64,000 bases of DNA from Candidatus Methylacidiphilales bacterium. Lineage in GTDB: Bacteria; Verrucomicrobiota; Verrucomicrobiia; Methylacidiphilales; Verrucolacustridaceae. The translations under genes were made by a program, and so were the position numbers. Location: positions 14,563 through 78,562 of the forward strand of contig JBIKTM010000005.1 in NCBI GenBank assembly GCA_044348085.1, in the 5' to 3' direction. Numbering within the stretch: position 1 is the stretch's first letter; each line of letters opens with the position of its first letter. The notes below the pieces were generated by a model that made no database searches, was not told the DNA's origin, and was given only the letters and a program-made list of their open reading frames with translations. Positions 13,797 to 62,719 of the stretch are shown here, in pieces.

Positions 13797-14990
13797 ATGA
13801 ATCACTCATCTCAAGAAAATTCATCCGTAGCCATTCTTGCTCTCGGAGGAGCGGGAGCGGCGGTGCTTGACAATTTAGCGGTAGCTTGTGAGGGGGAGCA
13901 TCGAACCCTCTGCATAGATACCGACGCGTTGGCGTTGCGTGGGACAGTGGCGGGGAAAAAGATTCTAGTAGCTCCAGAGCGAGTGCATGGAATGGGTACA
14001 GGCGGCGAGGGGGAACTTTTGGAGGGATTGAGTTTGGAAGAGGGAGATAGTTTAGATCCGTTGCTTCAAGGAATTCAGACCGCCTTGATCGTACTATCCG
14101 TGAGTGGGGGCACGGGATCTGCACTTGGACCCAGTTTGGTACGACGATTAAAGAAGCAGGGATCGGAAGTGGTGGTGTTCGCAATGACACCCTTTGGATT
14201 TGAGGGTCGAAAGAAAAAGGAGAAGGCTGAGTCGGCTTTGAAAGCGTTACGGAATTCAGCTGATGCAGTGCTGGTTTTTGGAAACGACAGGTTGCTGGAG
14301 ACTTCGATGGCAAAAGATTTAAGGGAGGGTCAGCGTGCATTGAATCGGGCGTTGGCAAAAACGATTCATGGATTAGCTCATGTGATGGAGAAGGGGGGAT
14401 TGGTGCATTTAGGCGTCGATGAGCTTCGTGAAGCTGTGGGTCAAGGGGTGGATGCGGTTGCCCAATTCGAAAATGCATGGGCAGGAGTAGCCGAGGCCTC
14501 TGGTGAGGGCCGGGAGGAGGCAGCGATAGAGGCGGTTGTGGAGGATATCCTTTTGGAGGATGGAAGGGCCTGGAAAGATGGAAATCGGGTTCTGGTGAGC
14601 GTGATCACTGGACCTGAGACATCTCTGCAGGATTTTCATGGTTTGCTTGAAAAAATCCGGCGCCGGCTACCCGTAGATCTGCCCATTTCCGCTGGGGCTG
14701 CTGTAGATCCTGAAAGAAGTGAGTCGATTGGATTGACTGTGCTTGTGACGAGGAGGTGTGAGGAGGTGATGTTACCAAAGGTCGAGGTGGCCTCGAAGTC
14801 GTCTGCTGAAATGAGCCAAGAGCAAGCTGAGTCGAAAGCTAAAAGAAGAAAGAAATTTGTAGCTGCCCAAGCCGAATTAGAATTCGATAAAACACCGAGC
14901 CGATTTGCGAGGTCATCTCCTAGCGTACGAGGGGCGGAGGATTTAGATCGGCCGACCTTCCAGCGGAAGGGGATTAAACTCAGGGTTTGA
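13797..14990 (+). CDS. ftsZ: Divergent FtsZ/tubulin-family protein
   Basis: Follows ftsA. Retains LGGAG, IDTD, GGTGS, PFGFEG, NDRL and the C-terminal DLDRPTFQRK, but the GTPase motifs are degenerate. Confidence 0.88.
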   Translation: MNHSSQENSSVAILALGGAGAAVLDNLAVACEGEHRTLCIDTDALALRGTVAGKKILVAPERVHGMGTGGEGELLEGLSLEEGDSLDPLLQGIQTALIVLSVSGGTGSALGPSLVRRLKKQGSEVVVFAMTPFGFEGRKKKEKAESALKALRNSADAVLVFGNDRLLETSMAKDLREGQRALNRALAKTIHGLAHVMEKGGLVHLGVDELREAVGQGVDAVAQFENAWAGVAEASGEGREEAAIEAVVEDILLEDGRAWKDGNRVLVSVITGPETSLQDFHGLLEKIRRRLPVDLPISAGAAVDPERSESIGLTVLVTRRCEEVMLPKVEVASKSSAEMSQEQAESKAKRRKKFVAAQAELEFDKTPSRFARSSPSVRGAEDLDRPTFQRKGIKLRV

Positions 14991-26546: not shown

Positions 26547-27782
26547 ATGGCCAAAGAGATCACCATGCCCGCTTTGAGTCCCTCGATGACCGAGGGCGTA
26601 TTGGCTAAGTGGCATAAAAAGGTCGGCGATACCATCAAACCTGGGGAAGTGATCGCCGAGGTCGAGACCGACAAAGCGACGATGGATCTCGAGGCGTACG
26701 ACAAGGGGACTATTTTACAGATTTCCGCTCCTGAAGGTTCCAAAGTGGCGATCAACGGACGGATCGCCATCGTCGGAGAGCCTGGAGAAAAGGTGGATTC
26801 GTTCAGCGCCCCGGCTCCAGTGGCCTCCGCCGCCCCAGCCACTAAGGCTGCGACGAGCAGTTCTCCGGCTCCCGCAGTTGCAGCGGCTCCTGTCGTGGCA
26901 CCTGCGAACGTGGGGCGGGTGAAGATTTCGCCTTTGGCCAAGAAGGTGGCTGCAGAGAAGGGGGTGGATGTAACCCGGGTGGCGGGCACAGGTCCAGGAG
27001 GAAGAATTGTTCGTCGGGATGTGGAAGGGGCCGGCAGTGGTGCGGGGCGTGTTTCCGTTGGAATTTTTGGTGGGAAGCCGATCGCGCAAGATGGGGTTCG
27101 TCCGGTTTCGCAGATGCGGGCGGCGATCGCCCGTCGTTTGGTCGAGAGCAAGACCACCGCTCCCCATTTCTATGTCGAACGTGAGGTGGATGCATCTCCG
27201 CTTGCAAAATTACGGGCTTCGGCGAATGCCGCACTCGAAATGGCAGGCGAAAAGTTGAAGCTGAGCGTGAATGATTTTGTTTTGAAGGCGGCGGTGGAGG
27301 CACTTCGGAGAGTTCCGGGGGTCAACTGCTCGTGGGAAGGATCTTCCATCCGGCAACATGGGGCGGTGCATCTGGCCTTTGCGGTGGCGTTGCCCGATGG
27401 ATTGATCACACCAGTGATCCGTAATGCCCATGCGAAGGATTTCCGGACGATCGCCCGGGAGGCCAAGGATCTCGGGGCGAAAGCGAAGGCCGGAAAGTTG
27501 CAGCCCGAGGAGTACACGGGCGGAACCTTTACCGTGAGTAATCTTGGAATGGTCGGAGTAGAGAAATTTTCGGCGATTTTGAATCCCCCACAGGCGGCGA
27601 TTTTGGCGGTGGGGGCAACAGTCAAAAAGCCGGTGGTAGCTTCGAACGGGGCGATTGTTCCTGGTGAAAGAATGAGTCTGACCGTTTCGGCCGATCACCG
27701 GGTGGTGGATGGCCTGATGGCGGGAGAGTTTCTCAAAGCGCTGGTAGAAGTGTTGGAGAGTCCTGGCGTACTTTTGATGTAA
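26547..27782 (+). CDS. pdhC: Dihydrolipoamide acetyltransferase (pyruvate dehydrogenase E2)
   Basis: Lipoyl domain MPALSPSMTEG..EVETDKATM, E3-binding domain (ISPLAKK..GTGPGGRI), catalytic DHRVVDG. Confidence 0.92.
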   Translation: MAKEITMPALSPSMTEGVLAKWHKKVGDTIKPGEVIAEVETDKATMDLEAYDKGTILQISAPEGSKVAINGRIAIVGEPGEKVDSFSAPAPVASAAPATKAATSSSPAPAVAAAPVVAPANVGRVKISPLAKKVAAEKGVDVTRVAGTGPGGRIVRRDVEGAGSGAGRVSVGIFGGKPIAQDGVRPVSQMRAAIARRLVESKTTAPHFYVEREVDASPLAKLRASANAALEMAGEKLKLSVNDFVLKAAVEALRRVPGVNCSWEGSSIRQHGAVHLAFAVALPDGLITPVIRNAHAKDFRTIAREAKDLGAKAKAGKLQPEEYTGGTFTVSNLGMVGVEKFSAILNPPQAAILAVGATVKKPVVASNGAIVPGERMSLTVSADHRVVDGLMAGEFLKALVEVLESPGVLLM

Positions 27783-27791
27783 GGGAAATTT

Positions 27792-29180
27792 ATGGCGACC
27801 TATGATCTGGCAGTTTTAGGTGGAGGCCCGGCCGGCTACGTCGGGGCGATCCGTGCGGCTCAACTGGGCAAGAAGGTTATCGTCATCGAGAAGGAACGTG
27901 CGGGTGGAACCTGCCTGAACTGGGGATGTATTCCCTCGAAGTCTCTTCTCAAGAATGCCGAGGTTTATCAGCACATCCTGCACGCTGAGGAGTACGGGAT
28001 CACCACAGGGAAGGTCTCCTTTGATTTTGCCAAAGTGATCGGAAGAAGCCGAAACGTTTCCGACCGGATTGCGAAGGGAGTCGAGTTTCTTCTGAAGGCC
28101 AAGAAAGTGGATTATTTGGTTGGGGAAGGAAAGTTGGGGACAGACCGCAAGATCAAGGTGAAGACTGCCGACGGGAAGAGCCAGGTGATCGAGGCGACGA
28201 ACGTTATGTTGGCGACCGGATGTCTGCCGAGGGTCCTGCCCGGGATGAAGGTGGACGGCAAGGTGGTGATGACCAGCCGCGAGGCTTTGGAGATGAAGAA
28301 ACAGCCCAAGAGCATCATTATTCTTGGAGCGGGAGCGATCGGAGTGGAGTTTGCTTATTTCCTGAATTCGTTTGGCACCAAGGTGACCCTCGTTGAGATG
28401 AAGTCGCGGGTTTTGCCAATCGAGGATGAGGAGATTTCCGACATGTTGGGCAAGAACTTGGCCAAGCAGGGGATTGAGATTCTGACCGAGACCTCAATGG
28501 AAAGCGTCACCGCTTCTGCCTCCGGGGTGAAGGTGAAGTTGTCAGGGAAAAATGCCAAGACGATCGAAGCAGATGTGTTGCTCTGTGCGGTCGGGGTACA
28601 GGCCAATCTAGATGGGGCTCTGGATGCAGGTGTGAAGCTGGAGTTGGATCGTGGGTATGTGAAGACGGATGCCCGGTACAAATCCTCCATGGCTGGTGTT
28701 TTTGCGGCCGGGGATATCATTGGACCACCTTGGCTGGCGCACGTGGCCTCGTTTGAGGCGATTGAGGCGGTGAATGGAATTTTTGATGCCAAGTACCAGC
28801 CGAAGAAGGTTGGGGCTTTCCCAGGCTGTACCTACTGCCAGCCGCAGGTCGCGAGCATTGGACTGACCGAAGCCGCGGCGAAGGAAAAGAAGCTGAAGTT
28901 CAAGGTCGGCCGGTTCCCATATCGGGCGAGTGGTCGGGCAGTGGCAAGCGGCGATTCCGAAGGGATGGTGAAGATTCTCATTGGGGAACCGCACGGGGAG
29001 ATTCTCGGGGCGCATATCATCGGAGCTGAGGCGACTGAACTGATCGCGGAGGTGGGATTAGGAATGACCCTTGAGGCCACGGCAGATGAGATCGCTCAAT
29101 CTATCCACGCCCATCCGACATTGACCGAGATGATCAAGGAAGCGACCGAAGCGGCGGTCGGCCACGCGATCCATATTTAA
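27792..29180 (+). CDS. lpdA: Dihydrolipoyl dehydrogenase (E3)
   Basis: [38 protein letters not shown]. Confidence 0.97.
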
Positions 29181-29210
29181 TCACGGCCTGCTGGACGTCG
29201 GGCCCTCCCC

Positions 29211-30005
29211 GTGATGATTCGCAAAGTTCCGGTTGCGCTGACCATTGCCGGATCCGATAACTCTGGCGGAGCTGGAATCCAGGCGGATCTAAAAACCTTT
29301 ACGCGCTTTGGGGTGTATGGAACGTCGGCTTTGACCTGTGTCGTGGCGGAGCATCCGGGAAGAGTTTCGAGAATCACGGCGGTTGAGCCAAGAATGGTGG
29401 CGGAGCAGATCAAGTTGGTCTTTGAAGCTTTTCCGGTGGGAGCGGTGAAGACGGGGATGCTGTTTTCGTCTGGAATCATAAGGCAAGTGGCGAAGCAGTT
29501 GGGAAAGAGAAGAGGGCTTAAGCTGGTGGTGGATCCGGTGATGGTGGCGACGAGCGGGGCGGCACTGCTCAAGCCGGATGCGGAGCGGGCGATGGCCAAG
29601 CTTCTGTTTCCCAAAGCGGTCTTGGTGACTCCGAATCTGGATGAGGCGGCCAGATTGGTGGGGAGGAAATTGAGAAATCCAGAGCAAGCTAAGAAGGCGG
29701 CCCGGGAGTTGGCAAAAAAATGGAAAGTGCCGTTTCTGGTAAAGGGCGGGCATCTGATGTTGGCGAAGGCGGAGGATTATCTGGCTTGGCCGAACGGAAA
29801 GTTGAAAACCTTCTCAGCGGTACGCTGTAAGGGGGTCGAGACGCATGGGACGGGGTGCACCTACTCGGCAGCGATCTGTGCTGGATTGGCTCAAGGGCTT
29901 TCTTTGGAAAAAGCTGTAGGGAAGGGAAAGAAGTTCGTCACGCGAGCAATTCGGGGCCATCTCAAATTGGGTCGGTATACGCCTTTAAATCATCTGAAAG
30001 CATGA
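29211..30005 (+). CDS. thiD: Hydroxymethylpyrimidine/phosphomethylpyrimidine kinase
   Basis: [52 protein letters not shown]. Confidence 0.96.
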
Positions 30006-32302
30006 AGACGAATTGGCCGATGCGTCGGCCTCTGTTTCCAGTGGCGGTGGCAGGATTGGTGGGAACGGTGATGGGTTTAGGGTGGGGACAAATTCCATGG
30101 ATTTGGCTTGGGGTAGCTGGAGTTGGATCGGTGTTCTCTTGGTGGGGTCCAAAAAAGTGGAGAACGCCTGCGACCTGGCTCTTTGTTCTTGGGGTGTTTG
30201 CTCTTTATGCGGGGGCTCGGGCCTATGCTCCGCCCCGGGAATCGTTGAAGGCGCGGGCTGGGCAGGAGGGTGGGACAGTGGAGGTCGAAGGTTGGATCGC
30301 TGAATTGCCGACGGAACGAATTTGGGAAAACGGGGGAAAAGCGATGGAGACCGAAATGGAGGTAATCTCTCTTTTTGGGGAAACAGGTTGGGAGAGGACA
30401 AGTGGCAGGGTGTTGTTACGAGTGGATCCGTCTCCAGAAAAAATGCCCAAGGTGGGAAATGTTGTTCGGCTAGTGGGATATCTGACTTTACCGGAAAGGC
30501 CGATGAATCCAGGGGAGTTTGATCGGGTTCGTCACCTGCAATCCAGGGGATTGGATTATATTCTTAAGGTCCGAACCCAAGATTTGGAAATAGTCGGGGA
30601 TCAAAGGGGAGTTTGGTTGGCACGAATGGCAGCGGGATTACGGTCGCATATGATACGGTCGACATCATTGGGATTGCAGGAGGATTCGGAAGCTTCGGGG
30701 TTGATTGCGGCAATGTTGTTTGGTTATCGAGATGGGGTGGGCGAGGAATTGAGGGAGGCTTTTCGCGCAACCGGTACGTTGCATCTGTTTGCTGTGAGTG
30801 GACAGAACCTAGCGGTGGTAGCGGGAATGTTGCTGTGGATTCTGGCACTGACGGGAGCGGTGAAGTGGAGATGGGCGTGGATGACTTTACCGGCGGTGTT
30901 TCTCTTTTGTTTGGCGACGGGGATGGAGGCGAGTGCAGCCCGGGCCTTTGTCATGACTGGGGTGCTTTATCTGGGGTGGATCTTGGGTAGGCCGATGGAT
31001 CCTGCAAACTGGCTGGGGGCGGCATTAATAGGATTGATGATCTGGGATCCGCGCCAAGTGGAAGATGTTGGGTTTCAGCTTTCATTTTTAGTCGTAGCTG
31101 GGTTGATGGTTTTTGCGGCTCCGATTCAAGCGAAGCTGGTGGGTTGGGGTAGGCCAGACCGGTGGATACCGAATCGGCTGGTGAGCGTCTGGAGGAGGGC
31201 GTGGTATCGAGTTTGGTCGACATTGGCAACACTTGTCGCTGCCTCGGTTGCGGCGTGGTTGGGATCGGTGTTGCCTGGGATCGTTCTGTTTCATCAGATC
31301 ACGCCGGTGGCTTTGGTGGCGAATGTGGTGGCGGCTCCGATTGCGGGAGCGGTTACTGTCTTGGCGGCGGTATCTTCGATGATGGCGCCTTTCTTTTCCG
31401 TGGGGGCGATCGGGATGAATCTTTTAAATGCCCGGTTGGTCCATTTGCTGGCGGGGGTGTTGGGGTGGATGGCGACTTGGCCAGGAGGCCATTTTTCCGT
31501 GGCGGATCCGAGAGTGTGGTTCGAGAATGGGCCGGCATTAGAGATTGTGGCTGTGGAGGGAGCTGCGCCCACCTTGGTGACAGGGGAAGGAGGTAAATGG
31601 TTGATTGAAACTGGATCCAAGATGGCTTGGGCCAATTCTGTAAGACCATTTCTGAATTATTATGGGGTGAATCGGTTGGATGGGGTGATGTTAACGGCGG
31701 GTTTGGCAAAACGATCGGGTTCCGCACAGGAGTTATTGGGGTCGATGCCCATTGGGTGGTGGGGGGAGTCCGGTATGGGTGGGAGATCAGGAGCTTTAAA
31801 GCAGTGGAGAATGGAGATGGTGGAAAGAAAAGAGGGGAGAAGGTTTTTCGGTGAAGGGGATCGTGCAGATTTGGGGAAAGATTGGACAGCGGAGGTGCTT
31901 TGGCCGCCGGACGGAAGCGCATCAGGAAGGGCAGAAGAGGATGGGTTGGTTATGATTCTAGAGTGTGGAGAGGCACGATTGCTTTGGGCCGGGTCAATTC
32001 CAAGGGGTGTGGAAAAGAAACTGGTGGAAAGGTATGGGGAGAAGTTGAAATCGGGTGTTCTTGTACAAGGACCCTCCAAGGATGTGAATCTTACGTCAGA
32101 ATGGTTGCGGGCTGTTCGTCCGAACTATTTGGTCCGTTCGTGGAAAGCTCTAGAGGATGATCCTTCCCTCTCGGTCGACTTGGATCAAATTTCAAAAGAA
32201 ATCGGGATGACCCTTGTGAAGTTAAAAGAAAGCGGGGCGGTCCAGTTGCGGCCCGAGCCTCAAAATGGAGGTTGGGCAGTCAGGAAGTGGCGACCGGAGT
32301 AA
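30002..32302 (+). CDS. comEC: ComEC/Rec2 DNA-uptake membrane channel
   Basis: NPGEFD, TGTLHLFAVSGQN, GFQLSF, multiple TM helices, C-terminal metallo-beta-lactamase-like domain; ATGA overlap with thiD. Confidence 0.9.
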   Translation: MKTNWPMRRPLFPVAVAGLVGTVMGLGWGQIPWIWLGVAGVGSVFSWWGPKKWRTPATWLFVLGVFALYAGARAYAPPRESLKARAGQEGGTVEVEGWIAELPTERIWENGGKAMETEMEVISLFGETGWERTSGRVLLRVDPSPEKMPKVGNVVRLVGYLTLPERPMNPGEFDRVRHLQSRGLDYILKVRTQDLEIVGDQRGVWLARMAAGLRSHMIRSTSLGLQEDSEASGLIAAMLFGYRDGVGEELREAFRATGTLHLFAVSGQNLAVVAGMLLWILALTGAVKWRWAWMTLPAVFLFCLATGMEASAARAFVMTGVLYLGWILGRPMDPANWLGAALIGLMIWDPRQVEDVGFQLSFLVVAGLMVFAAPIQAKLVGWGRPDRWIPNRLVSVWRRAWYRVWSTLATLVAASVAAWLGSVLPGIVLFHQITPVALVANVVAAPIAGAVTVLAAVSSMMAPFFSVGAIGMNLLNARLVHLLAGVLGWMATWPGGHFSVADPRVWFENGPALEIVAVEGAAPTLVTGEGGKWLIETGSKMAWANSVRPFLNYYGVNRLDGVMLTAGLAKRSGSAQELLGSMPIGWWGESGMGGRSGALKQWRMEMVERKEGRRFFGEGDRADLGKDWTAEVLWPPDGSASGRAEEDGLVMILECGEARLLWAGSIPRGVEKKLVERYGEKLKSGVLVQGPSKDVNLTSEWLRAVRPNYLVRSWKALEDDPSLSVDLDQISKEIGMTLVKLKESGAVQLRPEPQNGGWAVRKWRPE

Positions 32303-32309
32303 GTGAAAG

Positions 32310-32951
32310 TCAGGGTTGCAGAGGGCAACCGGCGGTGGGGGCTTGGGGAATTCCCGAGAGGCCTGGCAGGTCAGGAGAGAGAGGGGGGAGTTGGAGTCGG
32401 GAAAAGAGATCGTTCAAACCGGCCAGAGAGATTCCGGGCCAGATGGCAGAAACCAGGCCATCCGGTTGGGCGAGAATGAAGCATCCGGATTTGGTAATTC
32501 CCAAGCGGTGGCCGAGCTGGGAATAGGGATCCCGGAGGGCCGGAAGTTCTTTTCCGGTTTTTGTCATGAACTCATGAATCTGGTCCGGTGTTCCCGCGAA
32601 AAGAAAAAACCAGGTGGCTTTTGTTTTAGTCTTTTCCATCGCAACGGCGAAATATTTCGCAAACTCGAGACTGCAGTCGCAGTCGTGGGAAAAGAAAACG
32701 AATACCACGGGCTTTTCTTTGGGGAGTGAGGGCCATGGGACGACCTGGCCATCCATTCGATATAGGACGCTCTGGTGGATGTTTTGACCTGTCGATTGGT
32801 TAAGGGTTTGTAGGTCGGAAGGGGGGGAGGGATGACGGCGTGAGATCTTTTCGTTGGGAGCGGTGGGGGGGTTGGAATCGGGTCGGGTAAGCCCGTAGAT
32901 CAAGGCAGCCAGAGCGACGAGAAAGAGGGCGATGGGCCAGGGGGATTTCAC
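32310..32951 (-). CDS. Membrane-anchored thioredoxin-fold (AhpC/TSA/redoxin-like) protein with CxC motif
   Basis: N-terminal TM, KPVVFVFFSHDCDCS, LRDPYSQLGHRLGIT, C-terminal GCPL. GTG 32951 preferred to TTG 32981. Confidence 0.7.
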   Translation of the reverse strand: MKSPWPIALFLVALAALIYGLTRPDSNPPTAPNEKISRRHPSPPSDLQTLNQSTGQNIHQSVLYRMDGQVVPWPSLPKEKPVVFVFFSHDCDCSLEFAKYFAVAMEKTKTKATWFFLFAGTPDQIHEFMTKTGKELPALRDPYSQLGHRLGITKSGCFILAQPDGLVSAIWPGISLAGLNDLFSRLQLPPLSPDLPGLSGIPQAPTAGCPLQP

Positions 32952-32956
32952 GGGAA

Positions 32957-34369
32957 TCAGTGGGAGGGCATGGCGATCCAAGGAGGGACAACACTTCCCT
33001 GTATCCAGCCATTGCGGCGACGGACTTCATCCTCCGTGAGGCGGGGATCTTTCAGATAGATGTAGTAGTCGTCCTGCCTTTCGAAGAGGTCGCCTTTGGC
33101 TTCCCGGGTTTCGCTGACCACCATAGTACTGGTGATCCGAATGTGGAAATAACCACGGATCAGTTCATCATACTTTGACGGAAGCAGTCTGAATTGAAAG
33201 GGGATGAGGGTTTTAGTTGGGATAACTTCCCGGATCTTTGTGTCGGACCCCTCGGGAGTCTCATGAGGAACGGAATCCCAACGCCCGTTGGCCTGATAGA
33301 AAACACGGATGGAAGGGCCAAGGATAAAGAAGCGACGGGATGAGTCATAGTTTTGGAGGAACAGATTCGCACGGACATTACCGTCGCCATTGGCATCGAA
33401 GGAGTCCACATCGGCCCGGAGTTGGCGAAAGGCGATTTCCTCAGTGATGCGTTTCTTTTCCTGTTTCGCCCAAAGTTGGCGTCCTTGTGACCAGGCGATG
33501 ATCCGGTCAGTCGAGTAAAGGAGTGACGCTCCCAAAAGCAGGGTACCCAGAAAGAACGAGGCTGGCCCCCGCCAATCCCCGACGGGTGCGGGTTGGGGGG
33601 GGTCTTGGGTCGCCAATCCTTTGGGGGGTTTTTCGAAAACCGGCCCCTGCCTTTCGATCAGGGAAGAGCGAACAGGTGTGGCGGAGGGTTTTTCCGTGAG
33701 AGCTAATTGTCCAGCAGACATCTGGAATACTCGATCGGCAAGCGAGGCGAGTTGGTCGCCATGGGTGACGGCGAAGATCGCGAGTTTCCGTTCGTCCCGA
33801 AGTTCTTGAAGTACTTTGAGAATTTCTTCCTCAGCCAAGGGATCGAGATTGCTGGTTGGTTCATCCAATAGGAGAAGGGCGGGTCCATATTGGAGGGCGC
33901 GGGCCAGGGAGACGCGACGCTGTTGTCCTCCGGAAAGTTCATTGGGAAAGGAATCCCAACGTTCTCCCATCCCCAGACGGGTCAGAAGTTTTTGGGCCCG
34001 GGAGTAGGCCTGATGTTGGGATTCGCCGGTAAGCAGCCCCGGTAGGGCGGCATTATCTAGGGCGGTGAGTCCGGGAAGAAGAGAGTTGGTTTGGAGCATG
34101 AAGCCAATTCGGCGGGAGCGGAGTTGGGCAAGTTTTCGGGGGGAGAGTTGGAGGAGGTCCGCTCCCTCAAGGTGGAGTGTGCCCTGGTCGGGTCGGGCGA
34201 GTGCTCCCAAGAGGGCCATCAGGGTGGATTTTCCCGAACCGGAACGACCACAGACGGCGACGAATTCACCCGGCTGGATTTCTAGGGAAACCTGGTGGAC
34301 AGCGGCGATGGAACCCCGTCGGGCAGGATAGATCCGGCTGAGATTTTGGGCGGAGAGGATAACGCTCAT
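32957..34369 (-). CDS. ABC transporter ATPase (LolD/MacB type) fused to a TM helix and an extracytoplasmic domain
   Basis: Walker A GRSGSGKS, LSGGQQRRV, Walker B LLLLDEPT, then a linker, a hydrophobic helix and about 180 aa ending WIAMPSH. Confidence 0.9.
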   Translation of the reverse strand: MSVILSAQNLSRIYPARRGSIAAVHQVSLEIQPGEFVAVCGRSGSGKSTLMALLGALARPDQGTLHLEGADLLQLSPRKLAQLRSRRIGFMLQTNSLLPGLTALDNAALPGLLTGESQHQAYSRAQKLLTRLGMGERWDSFPNELSGGQQRRVSLARALQYGPALLLLDEPTSNLDPLAEEEILKVLQELRDERKLAIFAVTHGDQLASLADRVFQMSAGQLALTEKPSATPVRSSLIERQGPVFEKPPKGLATQDPPQPAPVGDWRGPASFFLGTLLLGASLLYSTDRIIAWSQGRQLWAKQEKKRITEEIAFRQLRADVDSFDANGDGNVRANLFLQNYDSSRRFFILGPSIRVFYQANGRWDSVPHETPEGSDTKIREVIPTKTLIPFQFRLLPSKYDELIRGYFHIRITSTMVVSETREAKGDLFERQDDYYIYLKDPRLTEDEVRRRNGWIQGSVVPPWIAMPSH

Positions 34370-35595
34370 TCGTTATTCTCCCGGAGAAGTTGGTAGACCT
34401 CACGGCCCGCAAGACGCCAGGAAGGAAGCAGGGCGCCGAGACCGGCGACCAGAGAGCAAAGGATGAGGCTCAGGAGAGCGGCAAAAATCTGGGAGGAGAA
34501 AGAGGGGAGTTCGAAGGTGATTCCGCGGGAGGTGAGGAGATATCCGAAAGTTCGGACGAAGACGGCCAGTCCGGTGGCACCCAGGAGAACGCCAAAAAGA
34601 GCACCCAGGAAAGCGCAGAGGGCGGCTTCCATTGCCAGCCACAAGGAGAGTCCCATTCGAGAAAGGCCCATAGCGAGGAGTAGTCCGAGTTCCGCTTTTC
34701 GTTCAGCCACGATCCCGGCGTAGACGACAAGAATGAGAAGTCCGCCCATCCAAAGGCCAACGATGGTGAATGCGATCGAGCCGGTTAGTATGGTTCGGAT
34801 CGATTGGCGGACCTGAATTCCGAGTCCAGATCCGCTAATGACCTGAACTTCAGGAACAGAGGAAAGGGCGAAACGGACATGTCCCGCCCCGGCGCCGGGC
34901 GACAAGCGAAGGAGAAGGGCAGAGGCGGAGCCGCTGACCGGAAGGGTTCCGAATGTTTGGACTCCGTGGGATCTGGATTCATTCGCAAGTTCGTCCACGG
35001 TAGAAAAAGATCCAAAGACTGATCGTTCTGTGGGGCCCACACCCGTTAGGTCGAGTTTTCCCCAGACGACCAAACTTTTTCCAAAGAAATTCATGGTTGA
35101 GCCCAAGGGTTCTGGTCGGCGTCCACCGATGAGGACATCGCCTTGGGAGAACGGGCGGGGCAGGTGTTCTCTGATCCAGGGTTGTAAGGTGAAATCAGTG
35201 GAAGGATCGAAGGCGATCAGGTCGGTTTCGCCATGGCCTTCATCCGAGGGGATGGAGAAGTGGCGTTGGAGGGAGACTTTTTCCAGCCCGGGGAGAGTTT
35301 CGATTTGTTTAAAAACCGATGGGTCAAGTTGAGGGGCGTTGGGTTCCCCCGTGAGAAGGGCGGCGGTTAGGTTGTGGGTAGTTCCTTTGGAGAGGATGAG
35401 AAGATCGGCCCCCAGACGGTCGAGGGAGGTTTCGAGTCCACGGCGAATCGAATCTCGAACGACCAGAGTGAGAAAGATCGAAGCGGAACCGATGGCGACG
35501 GCGAGTGCTAGAAGGAGGTAGCGACCGGGGCTTCGTCGGGTCTCCTGGAGGACCAGACGAAATCCTAAGGGGAAAAGGTGGAATCCGTGGGGCAG
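34366..35595 (-). CDS. MacB/FtsX-family ABC permease (start codon non-canonical or lost)
   Basis: Hand translation shows the frame open from 35613 to the stop at 34366. The N-terminal TM segment RRSPGRYLLLALAVAIG..LDRLGADLLIL lies upstream of the ORF-track TTG (35106). CTG 35595 taken as provisional start. Confidence 0.8.
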   Translation of the reverse strand: MPHGFHLFPLGFRLVLQETRRSPGRYLLLALAVAIGSASIFLTLVVRDSIRRGLETSLDRLGADLLILSKGTTHNLTAALLTGEPNAPQLDPSVFKQIETLPGLEKVSLQRHFSIPSDEGHGETDLIAFDPSTDFTLQPWIREHLPRPFSQGDVLIGGRRPEPLGSTMNFFGKSLVVWGKLDLTGVGPTERSVFGSFSTVDELANESRSHGVQTFGTLPVSGSASALLLRLSPGAGAGHVRFALSSVPEVQVISGSGLGIQVRQSIRTILTGSIAFTIVGLWMGGLLILVVYAGIVAERKAELGLLLAMGLSRMGLSLWLAMEAALCAFLGALFGVLLGATGLAVFVRTFGYLLTSRGITFELPSFSSQIFAALLSLILCSLVAGLGALLPSWRLAGREVYQLLRENNE

Positions 35596-35600
35596 GGTGG

Positions 35601-37196
35601 TTAGACCGTGCAGCTACGACTGAATTTCATCTCCTCCACTTTGGAGGGAACGATGACGCAGTCGTGGTGTCCGCCGAAGTTGGGCATATAGCCGACCTGT
35701 TCTAAAGTATCCTGCCGGAAGACAAAGGCGCCGGATTCCATTCGTTGGAATCCCGAAAAGATCACCAAGGCATATTTTCCATCATAGGTTGTGGCTGTGG
35801 TCTGAGTATCGACTCCGACATTTCGGAACTTTTTGACGACTTTCCAGTCCTTGGTGCTCACGACATAAACATCCGATTTCATCGGCTTTGGTCGGAGAAC
35901 GGTGAAGAAGCATTTTGAACCATCGATGGAGAAGTTGACGTGGAAGGGGGAGGGATATTCGCCCTGCCACTCTTTGTCCTTGATGAAGGTAACCCGCTTC
36001 CATGCCCGTGGATCGTCGCTGGAGGTGTCGAATACGGCAACGTTGTTGGCGCGTAGATTGTTCATCATAACCAGGTGATTGCCAGAAGGATTGAATCCGG
36101 TCTCGTGGATGGGGTTGCCGACGGAAGGTAGGGTGACTTCCCAGGTGTCCGGGCTGTTCGAGACTTTTTTCACGGGCCAGTTGTCAGCGAGACCTTCGTT
36201 CGCCATCACGTAGCAAACGGGCTCCATAGAGGTGCGGTCGATGATAAAACCGCCTCCGCACATGCGAAGGCCGGCGATGGAGTAGCGGTTGCGCGGGTCG
36301 TGCAGGCAAAAATCCAGACCCGTCAGGGTATGGGGGCTAGCACCAGGAGTTTGGCCTTTCTCGACGAGGAGTTCTGCCATGGGAGCCATCTCGTAGTTAA
36401 GTTTGTTTCCCTTCGTCCCGTAATAGTCGTACTTCCCGTCTTTTCCTGGGGCCAGTTTAATGAGTCGGATGGTTCCGCCCTTCGTCCAAGTTTCTGCCAG
36501 AACCTTCGAGTTGGGGACCCAATCGCCCCGGAAGGAGGTAAGGACTTTGGTTTTATCCTGGCCGCGGGCCCGGGAGAAAAATCCCACCACATCCTTCTGA
36601 CCGTCGGCGCAGGCAAAACCATTTCCATCTGGGAAAGGGACAGTATGGACGCCTAAACCGATTCCCGTCGTTTCGGAAACATCCTCAAGGAGTTCCATCT
36701 GATTTGATTTTCCATCGTACCCGACGCGGTAGATGTGATTCCCCATTCCGTATTTGTCGAGCATGCCGTGCTCTTTGATTTTCGTATTGAGGCCGTACAT
36801 TAGGACATTATCGCCACCTTGGGTGGAGTTAATGAATTCAAAGCCTTTGTAGGGGTCTCCGCTATCGGCATAGAAGGCAGCCAAATGGTGGGAGATCGGG
36901 CAGGAGTCCCCGTAGTTCCAGTAGGAAATCCATGAGAGGGTTTTTTGAGTTCCCAAATCGACGGCATGGGTTCCTCCGCCCAGCTTTTGTGGGGTGAGAT
37001 AGATATATTTTCCAAGGGATTCGCGGATGCCTTGGTAGACGGCATCTTCGATTAGGATCCCGTCTTCGTTTTTAGCGGCGTAGGAGGTACCAGGAAGGTA
37101 GCGGGTTAGACCGGCACCCGTAAGCCCGGCCAGACCAGCGAATCCGTAATAAAAGAAGCGACGACGGCTGATTTTTTCAAGGTGGGCATTCGACAT
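35601..37196 (-). CDS. Tat-exported thiocyanate dehydrogenase (TcDH)-like copper beta-propeller protein
   Basis: Twin-Arg signal SRRRFF. Motifs match TcDH as recalled: PQKLGG, WNYGDSCPISHH, DPYKGFEF, GLGVH, DGQKD, GNKLNYE, GLD, IHETGF, YPSPFH, TYDGK, GHHD. Confidence 0.88.
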   Translation of the reverse strand: MSNAHLEKISRRRFFYYGFAGLAGLTGAGLTRYLPGTSYAAKNEDGILIEDAVYQGIRESLGKYIYLTPQKLGGGTHAVDLGTQKTLSWISYWNYGDSCPISHHLAAFYADSGDPYKGFEFINSTQGGDNVLMYGLNTKIKEHGMLDKYGMGNHIYRVGYDGKSNQMELLEDVSETTGIGLGVHTVPFPDGNGFACADGQKDVVGFFSRARGQDKTKVLTSFRGDWVPNSKVLAETWTKGGTIRLIKLAPGKDGKYDYYGTKGNKLNYEMAPMAELLVEKGQTPGASPHTLTGLDFCLHDPRNRYSIAGLRMCGGGFIIDRTSMEPVCYVMANEGLADNWPVKKVSNSPDTWEVTLPSVGNPIHETGFNPSGNHLVMMNNLRANNVAVFDTSSDDPRAWKRVTFIKDKEWQGEYPSPFHVNFSIDGSKCFFTVLRPKPMKSDVYVVSTKDWKVVKKFRNVGVDTQTTATTYDGKYALVIFSGFQRMESGAFVFRQDTLEQVGYMPNFGGHHDCVIVPSKVEEMKFSRSCTV

Positions 37197-59101: not shown

Positions 59102-59857
59102 TTAATAGTATTCGACGATTCGAAAGAAGGCGCGGGGGTAGTTGAGGGGGAGGGGGCATTCAATCTTAAGTCCATTACCATCGATTCCGATGTTGCCTTC
59201 CACATTGATCCATTTGTTTGTAAACAAGTCGGTGCAAACCTGTAGGTCGTAAACGAGATACTCCCTCGATTGAAAGCTGAGCAGTGCCTGCCCGTTTTGC
59301 AGCTGGATTGAGAGTTGTGGGGGAAGTTGGGCATGGAGGGTCAGTGTGAAGTCTGTGCTCGGTAAGAAGAGGTTGTTTTTGTCCTGAGCTCGAAAGGCGA
59401 TCTGATAATCTCCAGGTTGATCAGTCGTAAAGATTCTTCCGTGGGCATGAGTTTCTCCGCCTAGGATCACTGGAAAGGCTGGGCGATCAGTTTCTGTTTG
59501 GTTCCAGCCGGAGGATCGGCTCCAGGTTGGAATCGTACTTCCAGATTCCCAGAAGGAGAAAAAAGCTCCTGTGGGGCCTGTCACGGAAACTAGTTCGATG
59601 ACAGGGTCGGATCCATCGGCTGAATTCAATACATTGACCTCAGTGGTGAACGTAAGTTCGCATGCAAAGTATCCACCGGGAAAATCTGGGGCATAGCCAC
59701 TGAAGGGTTCGCCTTGAGGAACAAAAAGGGCGATCTGATAACTTGGGCCATCCAGACCAAGTTGGCTTGGGTTCTGATAGGATTGGCCTACCTCCACATG
59801 ATCGTGGGCTTGTGCCCAGGCGGTGAAGATAAGTGCGGGAAGCAGGAGTTTCTTCAT
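59102..59857 (-). CDS. Secreted/surface His-motif protein, putative metal-binding
   Basis: ATG 59857; signal peptide ending AQA, then HDH; internal ETHAHG..FTTDQPGDYQIAF; C-terminal RAFFRIVEYY of the kind seen on verrucomicrobial surface proteins. Confidence 0.65.
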   Translation of the reverse strand: MKKLLLPALIFTAWAQAHDHVEVGQSYQNPSQLGLDGPSYQIALFVPQGEPFSGYAPDFPGGYFACELTFTTEVNVLNSADGSDPVIELVSVTGPTGAFFSFWESGSTIPTWSRSSGWNQTETDRPAFPVILGGETHAHGRIFTTDQPGDYQIAFRAQDKNNLFLPSTDFTLTLHAQLPPQLSIQLQNGQALLSFQSREYLVYDLQVCTDLFTNKWINVEGNIGIDGNGLKIECPLPLNYPRAFFRIVEYY

Positions 59858-60483
59858 GGGACCAGGAAAGAGGAGTTGGCTTGTGTGAGTCGTCTTTGGA
59901 CTTCGGTCCAAGAAAGGTTTTCTGCATGGCCGTCTGCAAACAGATAATTGGCGGATGGGCCGTGGCAGTTGACGTTTACTTCTCCACGAAACTGGTTCGG
60001 TGTTATTCGGGAAGCACCGCCACGGGTACCTGAAAAGTGAAAATGCTCGCCAGTCAGATTCGTGGCCAGTTCTGTGACCACCATGGTGCTGGAGGGACTT
60101 CGAAACGAGGGTGCTGTCACTCCATAGCCTTGTGCATCTGCTAAGGCATCGTTCCACGCGTAGGTGAGTTTCGATCGATGCTTAGGGACGGCACAGCAAC
60201 TTCCTAGAAAGTTGGTCTTCAAAAAATCGGCCAGAGTATTGGTCCATGAGGAGGCGACCCCCTGATGAGAAGTGCTCGGAAAACGCCCTGAATTCTCTCC
60301 GACGTAGAGTTGAACCGCTACGCCCACCTGTCTCAAGTCGTTCAAGCAACGGGTCGTTTTTGTTTTTTCGGTTACTCCGCGGGTGGCTGCAAGTCCAAGA
60401 GTTGTGAGGGTCGCGATGATGGTCACAACGGTTAGCAATTCGACCAGAGTGAAGGCTGGCGATTTTGTGAAAGATCGTTTCAT
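59854..60483 (-). CDS. Prepilin-type N-terminal cleavage/methylation protein with H-X9-DG motif
   Basis: AFTLVELLTVV, CLNDLRQVG.A..LY, HGPSANYLFADGH (exact H-X9-DG); ATG 60483. Confidence 0.9.
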   Translation of the reverse strand: MKRSFTKSPAFTLVELLTVVTIIATLTTLGLAATRGVTEKTKTTRCLNDLRQVGVAVQLYVGENSGRFPSTSHQGVASSWTNTLADFLKTNFLGSCCAVPKHRSKLTYAWNDALADAQGYGVTAPSFRSPSSTMVVTELATNLTGEHFHFSGTRGGASRITPNQFRGEVNVNCHGPSANYLFADGHAENLSWTEVQRRLTQANSSFLVP

Positions 60484-60523
60484 AAAAAAAGGGAAAGCCC
60501 CGCCCTCCTTTGCGGGAGGGCGG
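60484..60523 (-). terminator. Probable intrinsic terminator between the PEP-CTERM and pilin genes
   Basis: Minus strand: CCGCCCTCCC-GCAA-AGGAGGGCGG stem, then GGCTTTCCC and T7 directly before the pilin ATG. Confidence 0.6.
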
Positions 60524-60538
60524 AGTCCCCAATGGGAG

Positions 60539-61432
60539 CTAGCCTTTGCGCCTCCGAAGCAGGGCCAAGAGGGCGGCGCCGCCCAGAAGCAAGAAACCGG
60601 TTGAGGGTTCAGGCACCAGACCGACGGTGACGTTGGCCCCGTAAGTAGGGAATGTTGTGGGACCTTCCGTCGTCTGCAGGGCGTAATTCGCACCCCCGAC
60701 GAAGAAGGAGTAGTCGCCCGCTGCCAAACCGGAGAAGGTGGCGGTGACGAATCCGTCCGCCGTGCCGTCGCCGACAATCCCGGCCGCATTGCCGAAGTTG
60801 GCGGAGGTGCCATCCGCGGCATGGCCGATATAGGCGAAGTTCGCCAAACGTGCCGCGATCAGGATGCCGCTGGCGGGATCGCCGGCGGTGTTGTAGGTCG
60901 GGTCGTTGCCGATGGACCAGTTGCCTAGGGAGCGGAAGGAACCCTCTTTGCCGCTACCACCGAGGCCGGAGCCGTTGCCGCTTCCAAACTGATCCACCAA
61001 CGACTGGCTAGACAGCGCAGCGCCATCGTGCGCGAGCGCCTCCGTGCGGTAGATCGAGCCCTGCTGGACGCCTTCATTATTGGCCCGCTGAGCCAGTCCC
61101 AAGAAGAGGGAGAAGGCCGGCAGGAAGGTGCCGTTGGGGCCGGTGCCAAGTAGATTACGTTCGGCGGTGATCCTGACGCTCTGATCCGCAGTGAGAGGAT
61201 TTGCCAACGTGAACCGGAAAAACCTTCCGCGGTGACTATCGCCCCAGTCGGCATCGGTAGCATCGGCCCAACCGAAACCGCTTGAGATGGTTTGTGTGGT
61301 GTTGGACACGTCGGCGCTGATGATTAGGGTGCCGAAGTTCCGGTTGCTGTAGCTAATGTGAGCCAAGGCTTTGGTTCCAGCGATCGCCAGAATGCCACAA
61401 GCCATCAAAATATATTTAGTAATCCAGTTCAT
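60539..61432 (-). CDS. PEP-CTERM surface protein with predicted N-terminal His
   Basis: ATG 61432; signal peptide ending ALA, then HISY; DWGDSH, AHDG, GHAADG; C-terminal VPEPSTGFLLLGGAALLALLRRRKG; GC-rich (line 60721: 40/60). Confidence 0.92.
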   Translation of the reverse strand: MNWITKYILMACGILAIAGTKALAHISYSNRNFGTLIISADVSNTTQTISSGFGWADATDADWGDSHRGRFFRFTLANPLTADQSVRITAERNLLGTGPNGTFLPAFSLFLGLAQRANNEGVQQGSIYRTEALAHDGAALSSQSLVDQFGSGNGSGLGGSGKEGSFRSLGNWSIGNDPTYNTAGDPASGILIAARLANFAYIGHAADGTSANFGNAAGIVGDGTADGFVTATFSGLAAGDYSFFVGGANYALQTTEGPTTFPTYGANVTVGLVPEPSTGFLLLGGAALLALLRRRKG

Positions 61433-61506
61433 ATCTTTCTTCTTTCCTCCCGGACGAGCCGGGAAATCTGATCCAAGGGTTCGGACCAGCGGGTTAAATC
61501 TCAAAT

Positions 61507-61540
61507 GGAAGCCAACGCGTTGGCGTGGTTTCCAGAAACC
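61507..61540. promoter_or_regulatory. Adjacent inverted repeats in the leader-to-PEP-CTERM spacer
   Basis: Perfect 14-bp palindrome GCCAACGCGTTGGC (61511-61524) and GGTTTC-CA-GAAACC (61527-61540). Confidence 0.5.
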
Positions 61541-61553
61541 AAGCAGTTGAGAT

Positions 61554-61931
61554 TTAGGCTCTAGGAGGGGGGAGGAGTGGGGAGGCGCGATCCGCGCCCA
61601 TCAGATATTCAGTTGAGGAAAAGTGGGAAACTTCACGGGAGTTGGAAATGCGGCCTGTGACGGTTTCCAGAGCCCAGAGAAAATCAGCGGGGAGTGTTGA
61701 AAGTGCGGAAAGGGTCGTTGGGGTGGAATCGGGACGGGTCTGGGCAATTCGTTCGCACAATGAGCAGGGGTGTTGTCCGTCGAAAGTTTTCTTCAGCCCT
61801 ACGCCGAAACCGGATTCTTGGGAATAGGAGGTGAGCATCCAGCCCCACGCGACCGTTTGAAGGAGCCCTTGCGGCAAGCCGATCTGCCAAGCTAGGGCCA
61901 AGGTCATAACAAGGGCACAAAAACGTTTCAC
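61554..61931 (-). CDS. Small membrane protein with CxxC and C-terminal polyproline (DUF2946/CruR-like leader)
   Basis: 125 aa; hydrophobic N-terminus, TFDGQHPCSLC, C-terminal RASPLLPPPRA; first gene of the 59.1-61.9 kb operon. Confidence 0.65.
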   Translation of the reverse strand: MKRFCALVMTLALAWQIGLPQGLLQTVAWGWMLTSYSQESGFGVGLKKTFDGQHPCSLCERIAQTRPDSTPTTLSALSTLPADFLWALETVTGRISNSREVSHFSSTEYLMGADRASPLLPPPRA

Positions 61932-62020
61932 TTAAGTTGTCTTACTCCTATCCACAGGGACGGTCAACTTATGGAAGAAAGATAGTTGCGGAGTAAGATG
62001 GTATTGCGGATCGTTTTGGT

Positions 62021-62719
62021 ATGTCTGAAGTTCTAATTATCCAGCATGAAGCGGGGGAGGGCCCAGGCACGATTGAGGAGGAGCTCATTCGTGTGGGGCA
62101 TAAGGTGCGTAGGGTTCGGATCGATCAGGGCGATAAAGTGCCAAACGAAGTGGGCGTGATGGGTGGTTTGGTCGTGATGGGTGGATCCATGGGTGTGGGG
62201 GATCAGGGGAAATTAGGCCACCTCAAGGATGAGATCGCACTTTTGAAGCAGTTTCATAAAGCTGAGAAACCGATTTTGGGGATCTGTTTGGGAGCGCAGT
62301 TATTGGCAGCGGCGTTGGGCACCGAAGTGGCGGCGGGAGAAAAGGAGATTGGCTGGTTTCCTGTTCGAAAACTTCCAGACGCGTTTAAGGATCCGGTTTT
62401 ACGAAGGTTGCCTGAGAATTTTCCTGCCTTGATGTGGCATGGGGATCATTTTGCGTTACCCAAAGGGGCAGTCCATCTGTTGAGTACAGACAAGTGTGTC
62501 TGTGCTGCTTTTCGGCATGGGAAAAAGGCGTATGGATTGGTTCCGCATCTGGAGATGACGGCCGCGATGGTGGATGAGATGGTGGCCGGTTCGAGAAAAA
62601 AACTGGAGTCGGCGGGCGTTGAGGTTTCAGGGATTCTGGAGGATACTTCGGAAAACGCCGAACCAGCAGAGGAGTTAGCCCGAGTGATGTGGAGGGCGTG
62701 GATCGGATTGTTGAGTTAA
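62021..62719 (+). CDS. Type 1 glutamine amidotransferase (GMP-synthase-like)
   Basis: QHEAGEGPG, MGGSM, GICLGAQ, WHGD, PHLE. Confidence 0.9.
   Translation: MSEVLIIQHEAGEGPGTIEEELIRVGHKVRRVRIDQGDKVPNEVGVMGGLVVMGGSMGVGDQGKLGHLKDEIALLKQFHKAEKPILGICLGAQLLAAALGTEVAAGEKEIGWFPVRKLPDAFKDPVLRRLPENFPALMWHGDHFALPKGAVHLLSTDKCVCAAFRHGKKAYGLVPHLEMTAAMVDEMVAGSRKKLESAGVEVSGILEDTSENAEPAEELARVMWRAWIGLLS

Follow-up and report, generated by a model that had tools for sequence, protein, structure and literature searches.

A locus of four genes (g1 to g4; 59102-61931, minus strand) was analysed within a 64,000-nt stretch of DNA, the window, which covers positions 14,563 to 78,562 of contig JBIKTM010000005.1 from a Candidatus Methylacidiphilales bacterium (GCA_044348085.1). 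By analogy with known leaders, and with moderate confidence, g1 is read as a nascent-chain sensor of envelope metal, probably copper, which resembles CutF and CruR and would gate an envelope metal-handling cassette formed by g2, g3 and g4. The gene anatomy, the conservation of motifs and of their spacing, selection on the terminal PPPR at the peptide level, covariation in the RNA, synteny and the metal-related contexts of homologous leaders are directly supported.

The host is a freshwater verrucomicrobium with a genome of ~2.03 Mb (93% complete). An earlier, preliminary description of this DNA had claimed four co-oriented genes between fcl and a class-I glutamine amidotransferase (GATase) gene, and these are present on the minus strand where it had placed them. 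Each of the features it had named (a leader with a CxxC and a proline end, a PEP-CTERM protein, an H-X9-DG pilin and an HxH protein) was found in the sequence. The last two genes are coupled through ATGA, the ATG of g4 overlapping the TGA of g3, and the His motifs ascribed to the three exported products correspond to invariant His residues in g2, g3 and g4. The features of the locus are as follows.

61932..62020, minus strand: presumed promoter region of the leader, divergent intergenic, 89 bp; the block is kept in close relatives
61554..61931, minus strand: g1, leader and candidate nascent-chain sensor, 125 aa, GTG start
61433..61553, minus strand: g1-g2 spacer RNA, structured; helix 1 reaches 61556, into the g1 stop codon
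60539..61432, minus strand: g2, PEP-CTERM (exosortase-sorted) protein, 297 aa
60492..60525, minus strand: hairpin followed by a T7 run between g2 and g3, terminator- or attenuator-like
59854..60483, minus strand: g3, prepilin-type H-X9-DG (DUF1559-like) protein, 209 aa
59102..59857, minus strand: g4, secreted HxH protein, 251 aa
58148-59080, plus strand: fcl flank; gmd/fcl are convergent to g1-g4
62021-62719, plus strand: GATase gene flank, divergent from g1

The leader g1 and known metal-sensing leaders

Read by eye, g1 starts with a basic MKRF (KR) followed by a hydrophobic stretch or transmembrane (TM) segment. Its CxxC is C56-S-L-C59, inside K48-TFDGQHPCSLC59, and the protein ends in L119-L-P-P-P-R-A125 directly before the stop codon, with a variable spacer of 61 aa between CxxC and PPPR. 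No Pfam or NCBIfam model matches g1. A protein search returned 58 close homologues of similar length and a scan of the genome collection at least 556 leader loci, the best 80 of which are almost all from Verrucomicrobiota. A profile built from 72 leaders recovers 3024 clusters (50% identity) and matches 89 of 401 Verrucomicrobiota genomes, with one to three copies in each.

The members of this family share one order of elements: a basic N-terminus, a hydrophobic G-x-HW-x-x-LQ-x-x-AW-x-x-M stretch (anchor motif HWxxLQxxAWxxM), K-TFDG-x-HPC-x-x-C, a hypervariable stretch and a final PP-x-PPPR. Residues Q25, A28, W29, M32, T49, F50, G52, C56 and C59 are invariant, both cysteines of the CxxC being retained throughout the 72 leader sequences. 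In 57 of 65 leaders, 56-62 aa separate CxxC from PPPR, and PPPR always lies one to six residues from the stop. Across the family, PPPR is encoded with the full sets of Pro codons (four) and Arg codons (six), which argues for selection at the level of the peptide, not of the RNA.

In some genomes, leader genes are found in groups of two or three within a few kb (L052:2551-9067, L070:1578-6032, L041:7001-9232). At L052 these form tandem cassettes in the order leader, PEP-CTERM, pilin, cytochrome-c protein, leader, pilin, g4-like, and L041 includes a leader-like fragment in the reverse orientation. Typical verrucomicrobial leader-pilin loci were also met under record titles naming Aliarcobacter, Bifidobacteriaceae, Proteobacteria or Bdellovibrionia (L017, L071, L021, L027, L040 and L077); these metagenome-assembled genome records are probably mis-binned or mislabelled.

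The preliminary description had set the leader beside the DUF2946 (PF11162)/CruR leaders, and membership of that family did not hold. PF11162 gives no hit on g1 or on 17 relatives, even at an E-value of 10, and a six-frame search of the host genome with the same model did not match the g1 locus. When the 72 leaders were compared with eight true DUF2946 proteins in hhalign, the probability was 3%, with 16 columns aligned around H..CxLC. A PF11162 search of 301 genomes of the phylum yields eight loci; these encode genuine CxxC...RAPP/RGPP proteins and none is a g1-family leader.

CruR (Bp2923) of Bordetella pertussis, a DUF2946 protein, combines a CXXC with a C-terminal RAPP at a fixed spacing of 45 residues (Roy et al. 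2022 mBio) and uses Rho. CutF, the leader of cutFOG in Rhodobacter capsulatus, ends in P109EPEGPPPRL118 (Ozturk et al. 2023 mBio; 2025 bioRxiv). As described by Ozturk et al., its PPP is needed for Cu-dependent stalling that is sensitive to elongation factor P (EF-P) and melts a stem-loop masking the cutO ribosome-binding site; the protein is longer than 100 aa, Cu-inducible and degraded once exported. Some CutF-like clusters are thought to be specific for Ni or Co.

Like CutF, g1 is exported, measures ~120 aa, stands first in its operon and has a Cys-pair metal motif. Both proteins end in PPPR, one further residue and the stop (GPPPRL in CutF, LPPPRA in g1), and in the g1 clade, as in CutF, an RNA helix masks the Shine-Dalgarno (SD) site belonging to the next gene. 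In contrast to CutF, g1 has no detectable sequence or profile homology to DUF2946, the Cys pair is a CxxC within TFDGxHPCxxC in the g1 family instead of a CxxxC, a conserved, TM-like segment (HWxxLQxxAW) serves as anchor, and the spacer RNA is 121 nt long with four helices. The phylum is Verrucomicrobiota, and the genes downstream encode pilin-like, PEP-CTERM and beta-sandwich proteins, whereas CutF precedes a multicopper oxidase. With CruR, g1 shares a CxxC, a conserved ruler distance to a C-terminal arrest-type motif and an export signal. The family also resembles CruR in heading uptake-type operons, TonB-dependent receptors, TonB and ExbB following g1-family leaders elsewhere. CruR differs in its RAPP end and 45-aa spacing, compared with PPPR and 56-62 aa (61 in g1); PF11162 does not match g1, and its host genome has no TonB-dependent receptor.

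Ozturk et al. (2023) define CutF-like proteins by rule: the protein has fewer than 150 aa, an N-terminal export signal and a metal motif of Cys/His type, and a gene in the same direction follows within 1000 nt. g1 has 125 aa, a KR plus hydrophobic N-terminus and HPCxxC, and the start of g2 lies 121 nt downstream. The CutF-like proline-repeat end is present as well (LPPPRA-stop), conserved at the amino-acid level with synonymous codon change, and so is a stem-loop over the downstream ribosome-binding site, in the g1 clade and not family-wide. Based on this analogy, g1 may be filed as CutF/CruR-like in function and outside DUF2946.

A different reading of the same protein is that g1 is a stable small membrane protein, such as a thiol or metal chaperone or a partner subunit, with a structural proline end. 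Its TM residues are strongly conserved, it has a length of 125 aa, it stands in some genomes directly before an extracytoplasmic function (ECF) sigma factor, a position often taken by genes for sigma-factor regulators such as anti-sigma factors, and family-wide spacers are not notably structured. A hypervariable middle third that nevertheless keeps a fixed CxxC-PPPR distance does not fit a stable protein well, nor does a motif that always lies one to six residues from the stop. In addition, g1 always comes first in its gene set, before partners of unrelated families, and CutF is likewise longer than 100 aa and is degraded after export. We consider a stable g1 quite unlikely.

The spacer RNA and the genes behind homologous leaders

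The spacer between g1 and g2 folds into four helices, which occupy the following positions together with the elements they bear on.

61547-61556 with 61495-61504, minus strand: helix 1; the 5' arm is the g1 stop codon plus 7 nt
61523-61534 with 61506-61518, minus strand: helix 2
61481-61489 with 61468-61476, minus strand: helix 3
61459-61463 with 61449-61453, minus strand: helix 4, which covers the first Gs of the g2 SD
61445-61451, minus strand: g2 SD, GGGAGGA
61570-61576 (Leu/Pro codons) with the g2 SD, minus strand: alternative long-range pairing

The fold of the 121-nt spacer has a z-score of -3.16. All four helices are kept in nine relatives, with 97% of cells paired and compensatory changes in 11 of 35 pairs; none of 500 shuffles reaches the observed values, and the signal collapses in a control in which the pairing partners were slid. 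In two sequences a G-C pair of helix 4 (CCCGG/CCGGG) is exchanged for A-U. The fold of minimum energy pairs the SD with the codons of Leu119-Leu120-Pro121 (UCCUCCC) rather than within helix 4. When the footprint of a ribosome was modelled as a block, the unpaired probability of the g2 SD rose from 0.02 to 0.24 in the window sequence, and a modelled opening of ~0.24-0.29 was obtained in three sequences (window, L010 and L012). This thermodynamic result is suggestive only. An Rfam search with the spacer RNA matched no family.

The second RNA element of the locus, between g2 and g3 and absent from the preliminary description, is a GC-rich hairpin of 11 bp whose T7 run abuts the g3 ATG. It is confined to the nearest relatives, occurring in the window, L005 and L011, and is absent or different in L007, L009 and L012. 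In metatranscriptome contigs from related strains, 68-77 nt are missing exactly at this hairpin (window 60459-60537), and the element behaves like a small insertion or REP-like (repetitive extragenic palindromic) element.

Upstream of g1, a -35-like TTGACC lies at 61962-61967, and a scan of the locus for sigma-70 consensus promoters reported none, so that the promoter position was not located. TTGACC stands 17 nt before a weak TAAGAC (window 61932-61971), which is only ~7 nt ahead of the GTG; judged from these positions, the g1 mRNA may have a very short 5' untranslated region or none.

Next, the genes behind homologous leaders were compared. Downstream open reading frames (ORFs) were called at 80 leader loci and clustered, and representatives were annotated; 75 loci were usable. 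The downstream partners included the following.

~38/75 loci: pilin-like (g3-type) gene within ~1.5 kb of the leader
22/75 loci: c1, an exported 310-aa protein with N-terminal CxCxC and C-terminal Phe, no family match
At least 6 loci (L016, L019, L020, L026, L034, L040): TonB-dependent receptors after the leader
2 loci: c16 (unknown protein), then CopC, after the leader
2 loci: 929-aa beta-propeller / di-haem peroxidase (MbnH-like) after the leader

The homologous leaders are thus linked to genes of metal-uptake type (TonB-dependent receptors, TonB, ExbB, CopC and MbnH-like peroxidases), and a lack of such links, which would have counted against the preliminary description, was not observed. 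Two complete Methylacidiphilum-like genomes (G132 and G279; L084-L087) carry two leaders each, one directly before TonB and the other before an ECF sigma-70 gene; both genomes belong to cultivable methanotroph relatives. Another genome of the Methylacidiphilum-like order has a TonB-dependent receptor after the leader, and one leader locus runs into ExbB, identified by eye from its N-terminal sequence. These partner classes are those reported for CruR/CutF-like and RAPP leaders. The g1-family leader is always first in a co-directional set, and its partners come from unrelated protein families.

A pilin-like gene directly downstream in ~38 of the 75 loci is not a chance arrangement, since only ~14 pilin-like ORFs occur in the 2-Mb host genome. 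The partners of the pilin-like gene are g4-like proteins or PEP-CTERM proteins, the latter either g2-like or Met-rich (c4; GGMIMPM, FMFMANPMMGM); the Met-rich type was found in nine leader loci. Four cassette orders were seen: leader-pilin-g4, leader-pilin-PEP, leader-PEP-pilin-g4 and leader-pilin-g4-PEP. The second commonest partner, c1 (e.g. L021:7473-8414 and L089:8322-9350(-)), is a protein of ~310 aa with CxCxC or CDLCGC at its N-terminus; it looks like an outer-membrane beta-barrel and has no Pfam or NCBIfam match.

In its supplementary tables, an EMBO J 2025 survey (PMC12992588) names DUF1559 genes as neighbours enriched downstream of RAPP/RGPP small ORFs; CopC, multicopper oxidase and TonB-receptor genes show the same enrichment behind these leaders. 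The likeness to the g1 locus is an arrest-type leader directly upstream of a DUF1559 pilin-like gene. The differences are the RAPP or RGPP ends and the absence of described PEP-CTERM or choice-of-anchor-M partners from that listing, in which the pairing is listed and not analysed. Together with the g1 family, two unrelated-looking leader families are tied to DUF1559-type genes. The preliminary description had called the system apparently undescribed, a claim to be qualified in that the pairing of a leader with DUF1559 is already listed, though not studied, for RAPP/RGPP leaders.

The downstream proteins and the metal that they may handle

The host genome encodes an exosortase (Exosortase_EpsH, 142 bits, at G000:C1) and a prepilin peptidase (Peptidase_A24). 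Read by eye, the signal peptide of g2 ends ALA|HISY, which gives a predicted mature N-terminus at His25. Its PEP-CTERM scores above the cut-offs (PF07589, 23 bits against 20.7; TIGR02595, 27.7 against 16). Invariant among g2-type proteins are H25 (12 of 12), Y28, R31, FGWA53-56, D60, GDSH64-67 and H135-D136.

g3 has a prepilin N-terminus, A|FTLVELL, that passes TIGR02532 (17.0 against 16.3) and stays below the Pfam N_methyl cut-off (17.3 against 21.2), a model matched by 22 of 23 members of the g3 family. The residue at -1 is Ala in the g3 clade and Gly or Ala in the family. An exact H-X9-DG is present, H174-GPSANYLFA-D184-G185 (TIGR04294 14.3, below 19). g3 itself misses PF07596 (DUF1559), which 13 of 23 leader-linked relatives match. 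Conserved residues of the g3 type are C46, H73, W80, C96, D-H147-F-H149 (D-H147-x-H149 in the family), H174, D184 and H186. Compared with solved pilins, the match is confined to the N-terminal helix.

g4 has a signal peptide, again read by eye, that closes with AQA|HDHVEVG, and residues 137-139 form a second HxH. The His set consists of H18, H20, H137 and H139, followed by G140 and R141; in g4-type proteins H20, H137, G140 and R141 are invariant, and H18 (the +1 residue, ~88%) and H139 are near-invariant. An AlphaFold2 (AF2) model has two beta-sandwich domains, with a predicted local distance difference test score (pLDDT) of 78 and a predicted template modelling score (pTM) of 0.71. The choice-of-anchor M model NF038134 scores 23.7 bits over residues 82-161, against a cut-off of 55, and matches 5 of 15 relatives weakly. 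By sequence, g4 is best treated as a distant relative of choice-of-anchor M / TIGR03769 and not as a certified member. Two relatives carry a PEP-CTERM in place of the C-terminal domain, which is the 'choice of anchor' pattern. Homology between g2 and g4 was considered but not detected; hhalign aligns the signal peptide and His only.

The surface proteins of anchored-repeat ABC transporters (TIGR03769/TIGR03773) share with g4 and its paralogues an HxH...PGxY core, and this choice-of-anchor M family has interchangeable anchors and a genomic tie to metal transport. In the troA-dip0445 cluster of Corynebacterium diphtheriae, such surface proteins are repressed by Zn/Zur. Unlike that cluster, the g4 locus has a pilin-like partner, a proposed regulation by leader peptide and no ABC transporter.

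Among periplasmic beta-sandwich copper proteins, N-terminal His residues are found in CopC, YcnI and PCuAC, and also at the CuB site of PmoB. g4 resembles these proteins as a secreted beta-sandwich with a predicted mature N-terminal His and a distal HxH, and g2 in its invariant predicted N-terminal His together with other invariant His residues; there is no sequence or fold match between them and g2 or g4. A copper site of the histidine-brace type, in which the His exposed by cleavage of the signal peptide would coordinate Cu together with a second His, is a candidate feature of both g2 and g4.

A second locus of the host genome (contig C22, ~27253-36000) holds another H-X9-DG pilin-like gene, followed 6 nt later by a gene for a 395-aa choice-of-anchor M protein. 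With NF038134 this protein scores 50.9 bits and a further choice-of-anchor M paralogue of the host genome 42.1, and TIGR03769 is matched too. Neighbours of the pair are a Fur-family regulator (H5 run, CxxC pairs) and a P1B ATPase of Cu type (CPC), as well as a pentameric ligand-gated-channel-like protein and a choice-of-anchor-M protein with PEP-CTERM. No g1-family leader is present at this paralogous locus.

The metal sensed and handled might instead be zinc, or Ni or Co. Asp51, His54, Cys56 and Cys59 would form a Zn site of classical type, the three downstream products are His-only proteins, in C. diphtheriae the choice-of-anchor M / TIGR03769-03773 proteins belong to a Zn/Zur-repressed troA cluster, and the C22 pair adjoins a regulator of the Fur/Zur family; for Ni and Co, the CutF-like clusters thought specific for these metals are in favour. 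By contrast, CopC and MbnH-like proteins occur in the contexts of the leader family, a close relative has Met-rich (Cu(I)-type) PEP-CTERM proteins behind a near-identical leader, and the P1B ATPase next to the C22 locus is of Cu type. A metal other than copper is therefore considered rather unlikely. The CopC, MbnH-like and Met-rich partners of homologous leaders speak for copper.

The cassette varies far more than its surroundings. In the nearest relatives the flanking genes are 90-99% identical and the leader 90-95%, compared with only 40-90% for g2, g3 and g4. In L003 (6594-8590) and L006, with flanks 94-98% identical, the same leader, spacer and MNWITKF start are followed by a different cassette, which consists of a Met-rich PEP-CTERM protein (GGMLMPM, FMFMSMG) and another pilin subtype, and has no g4. 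The effector cassette thus appears exchangeable behind a fixed sensor. The recombination breakpoint lies apparently within the signal-peptide codons. By such a swap between His-type and Met-type cassettes, close strains may adjust which form of copper they capture, Cu(II) or Cu(I), to their habitat.

Variation of this kind would also suit a cassette unrelated to metal, in which PEP-CTERM protein and pilin form a variable surface, adhesion or exopolysaccharide (EPS) module beside the GDP-fucose genes and the His residues are structural. PEP-CTERM proteins are generally tied to EPS loci, gmd/fcl are adjacent to the cassette, and g2-g4 evolve far faster than the flanks, as surface antigens do. 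However, the link between leader and cassette is phylum-wide with shuffled gene order, leader partners elsewhere are metal or TonB genes, and the C22 pair has a Fur-family regulator and a CopA-type ATPase as neighbours. Because the gmd/fcl linkage is confined to the nearest relatives, the EPS reading was set aside, and a non-metal role is held to be very unlikely.

Transcripts from freshwater strains 90-99% identical were present in metatranscriptome contigs, with word depths of 8-14 for leader plus spacer and 3-6 for g3-g4, and some contigs run from the end of g2 into the start of g3. This evidence consists of assembler contigs only and gives no attenuation ratio or metal response. Leader and g3-g4 are transcribed in related strains in nature, and their co-transcription is probable.

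A proposed mechanism and its significance

From the above, we infer that the ribosome stalls, that metal is bound and which metal it is, how the regulation is signed and in which direction transport runs. The proposed mechanism is as follows. The N-terminal anchor of g1 would bring the nascent chain to the Sec translocon, so that the D-x-x-H-P-C-x-x-C site reaches the periplasmic side. At that moment the ribosome, a fixed 56-62 residues further on, would meet the C-terminal PP-x-PPPR, one to six codons before the stop. Metal occupancy of the CxxC site might then alter how long the ribosome pauses on PPP. A paused ribosome would cover the Leu/Pro (anti-SD) codons and the stop-codon arm of helix 1, which would remove the long-range pairing over the g2 SD and might also bar Rho, and downstream expression would follow the pause. 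Of the products, g2 would be an exosortase-sorted surface protein with a predicted starting His, g3 a pilin-like, DUF1559-type His-cluster protein anchored in the inner membrane or part of a pseudopilus, and g4, translationally coupled to g3, a choice-of-anchor-M-like beta-sandwich with a candidate site of three to four His. Together they would capture metal and relay it inward in a small genome that has no TonB-dependent receptors.

Uptake is the most likely direction. The TonB, ExbB and receptor partners of homologous leaders speak for it, as does a host genome without a TonB-dependent receptor. The preliminary description had noted that no such receptor is present at the locus, and the observation extends to the whole 93%-complete 2.03-Mb assembly, in which no receptor barrel (PF00593) was found. 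The scavenging it had proposed goes one step further; on the analogy with CutF, metal-induced sequestration would fit equally.

The same architecture would serve sequestration or detoxification if metal prolonged the stall and the His-rich binders buffered the excess. CopC and outer-membrane-type proteins occur in cop/pco resistance operons, and CopC and outer-membrane-type partners (c1, c16) are found behind g1-family leaders. The PPPR-x-stop end with an SD-masking helix is the arrangement of the Cu-inducible CutF, and the cassette holds no importer. Against this, g1-family leaders precede import machinery (TonB-dependent receptors, TonB and ExbB), uptake control of the CruR type is built from the same parts, and relatives of g4 are induced by metal limitation. 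We regard a sequestration layer as possible but improbable.

Several observations weigh against a metal-gated cassette under a stalling leader. Homology to DUF2946 being undetectable, the mechanism of g1 is drawn by analogy. The conserved TM segment (Q25, A28, W29, M32) and the length of 125 aa also fit a stable membrane protein, and the D/H/C/C ligand set would suit Zn too. The cassette encodes no inner-membrane importer, and a terminator-like hairpin splits g2 from g3-g4. For the products, the AF2 model of g2 is unusable (pLDDT 49.6) and a fold search with g4 returned generic immunoglobulin (Ig) and fibronectin type III (FN3) matches only. The modelled opening of the SD is modest and is absent in L008. 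Finally, leader-gene spacers across the family are not more structured than control windows (median z-score -0.42, 5 of 51 below -2). An SD-masking switch is therefore specific to the clade and cannot be the general mechanism; by analogy with CruR, other members of the leader family may use Rho.

Arrest-type metal-sensing leaders are a known kind of regulation. New are the leader family, which has no model and no detectable DUF2946 homology, its dominance in Verrucomicrobiota, the structured spacer of the clade, and the conserved cassette of pilin, PEP-CTERM and choice-of-anchor-M proteins with swapping at the strain level. Copper-sensing leader peptides (CruR, CutF) were discovered recently, have been studied only in Proteobacteria and are defined via DUF2946. 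The g1 family would be a second, phylum-wide set (~3000 clusters) that follows the same logic and shares its PPPR-x-stop ending with CutF. A shared ending in the absence of detectable homology implies extreme divergence or convergence on one mechanism. Tentatively, and with clearly less confidence than for g1 as a sensor, we propose that PPPR-type sensors of Verrucomicrobiota, distinct from DUF2946, gate a TonB-independent capture and relay of Cu through an exosortase-sorted protein, a DUF1559 pseudopilin and a choice-of-anchor-M beta-sandwich.

About half of the leader-family members precede, and if the proposal is true gate, DUF1559/H-X9-DG pilin-like genes, and Planctomycete-type RAPP leaders show the same DUF1559 pairing in published supplementary tables. 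The DUF1559/H-X9-DG family is expanded by paralogy (~14 copies in the 2-Mb host genome), and in the searchable literature mentioning it no function for it was found. If true, the reading would give this large family of Planctomycetes-Verrucomicrobia-Chlamydiae (PVC) bacteria its first function, membrane-tethered metal binding. It is a testable hypothesis that envelope metals are handled by DUF1559 proteins together with the PEP-CTERM and choice-of-anchor-M proteins that accompany them, and this suggests a route by which streamlined freshwater bacteria without TonB-dependent receptors may acquire or buffer trace metals.

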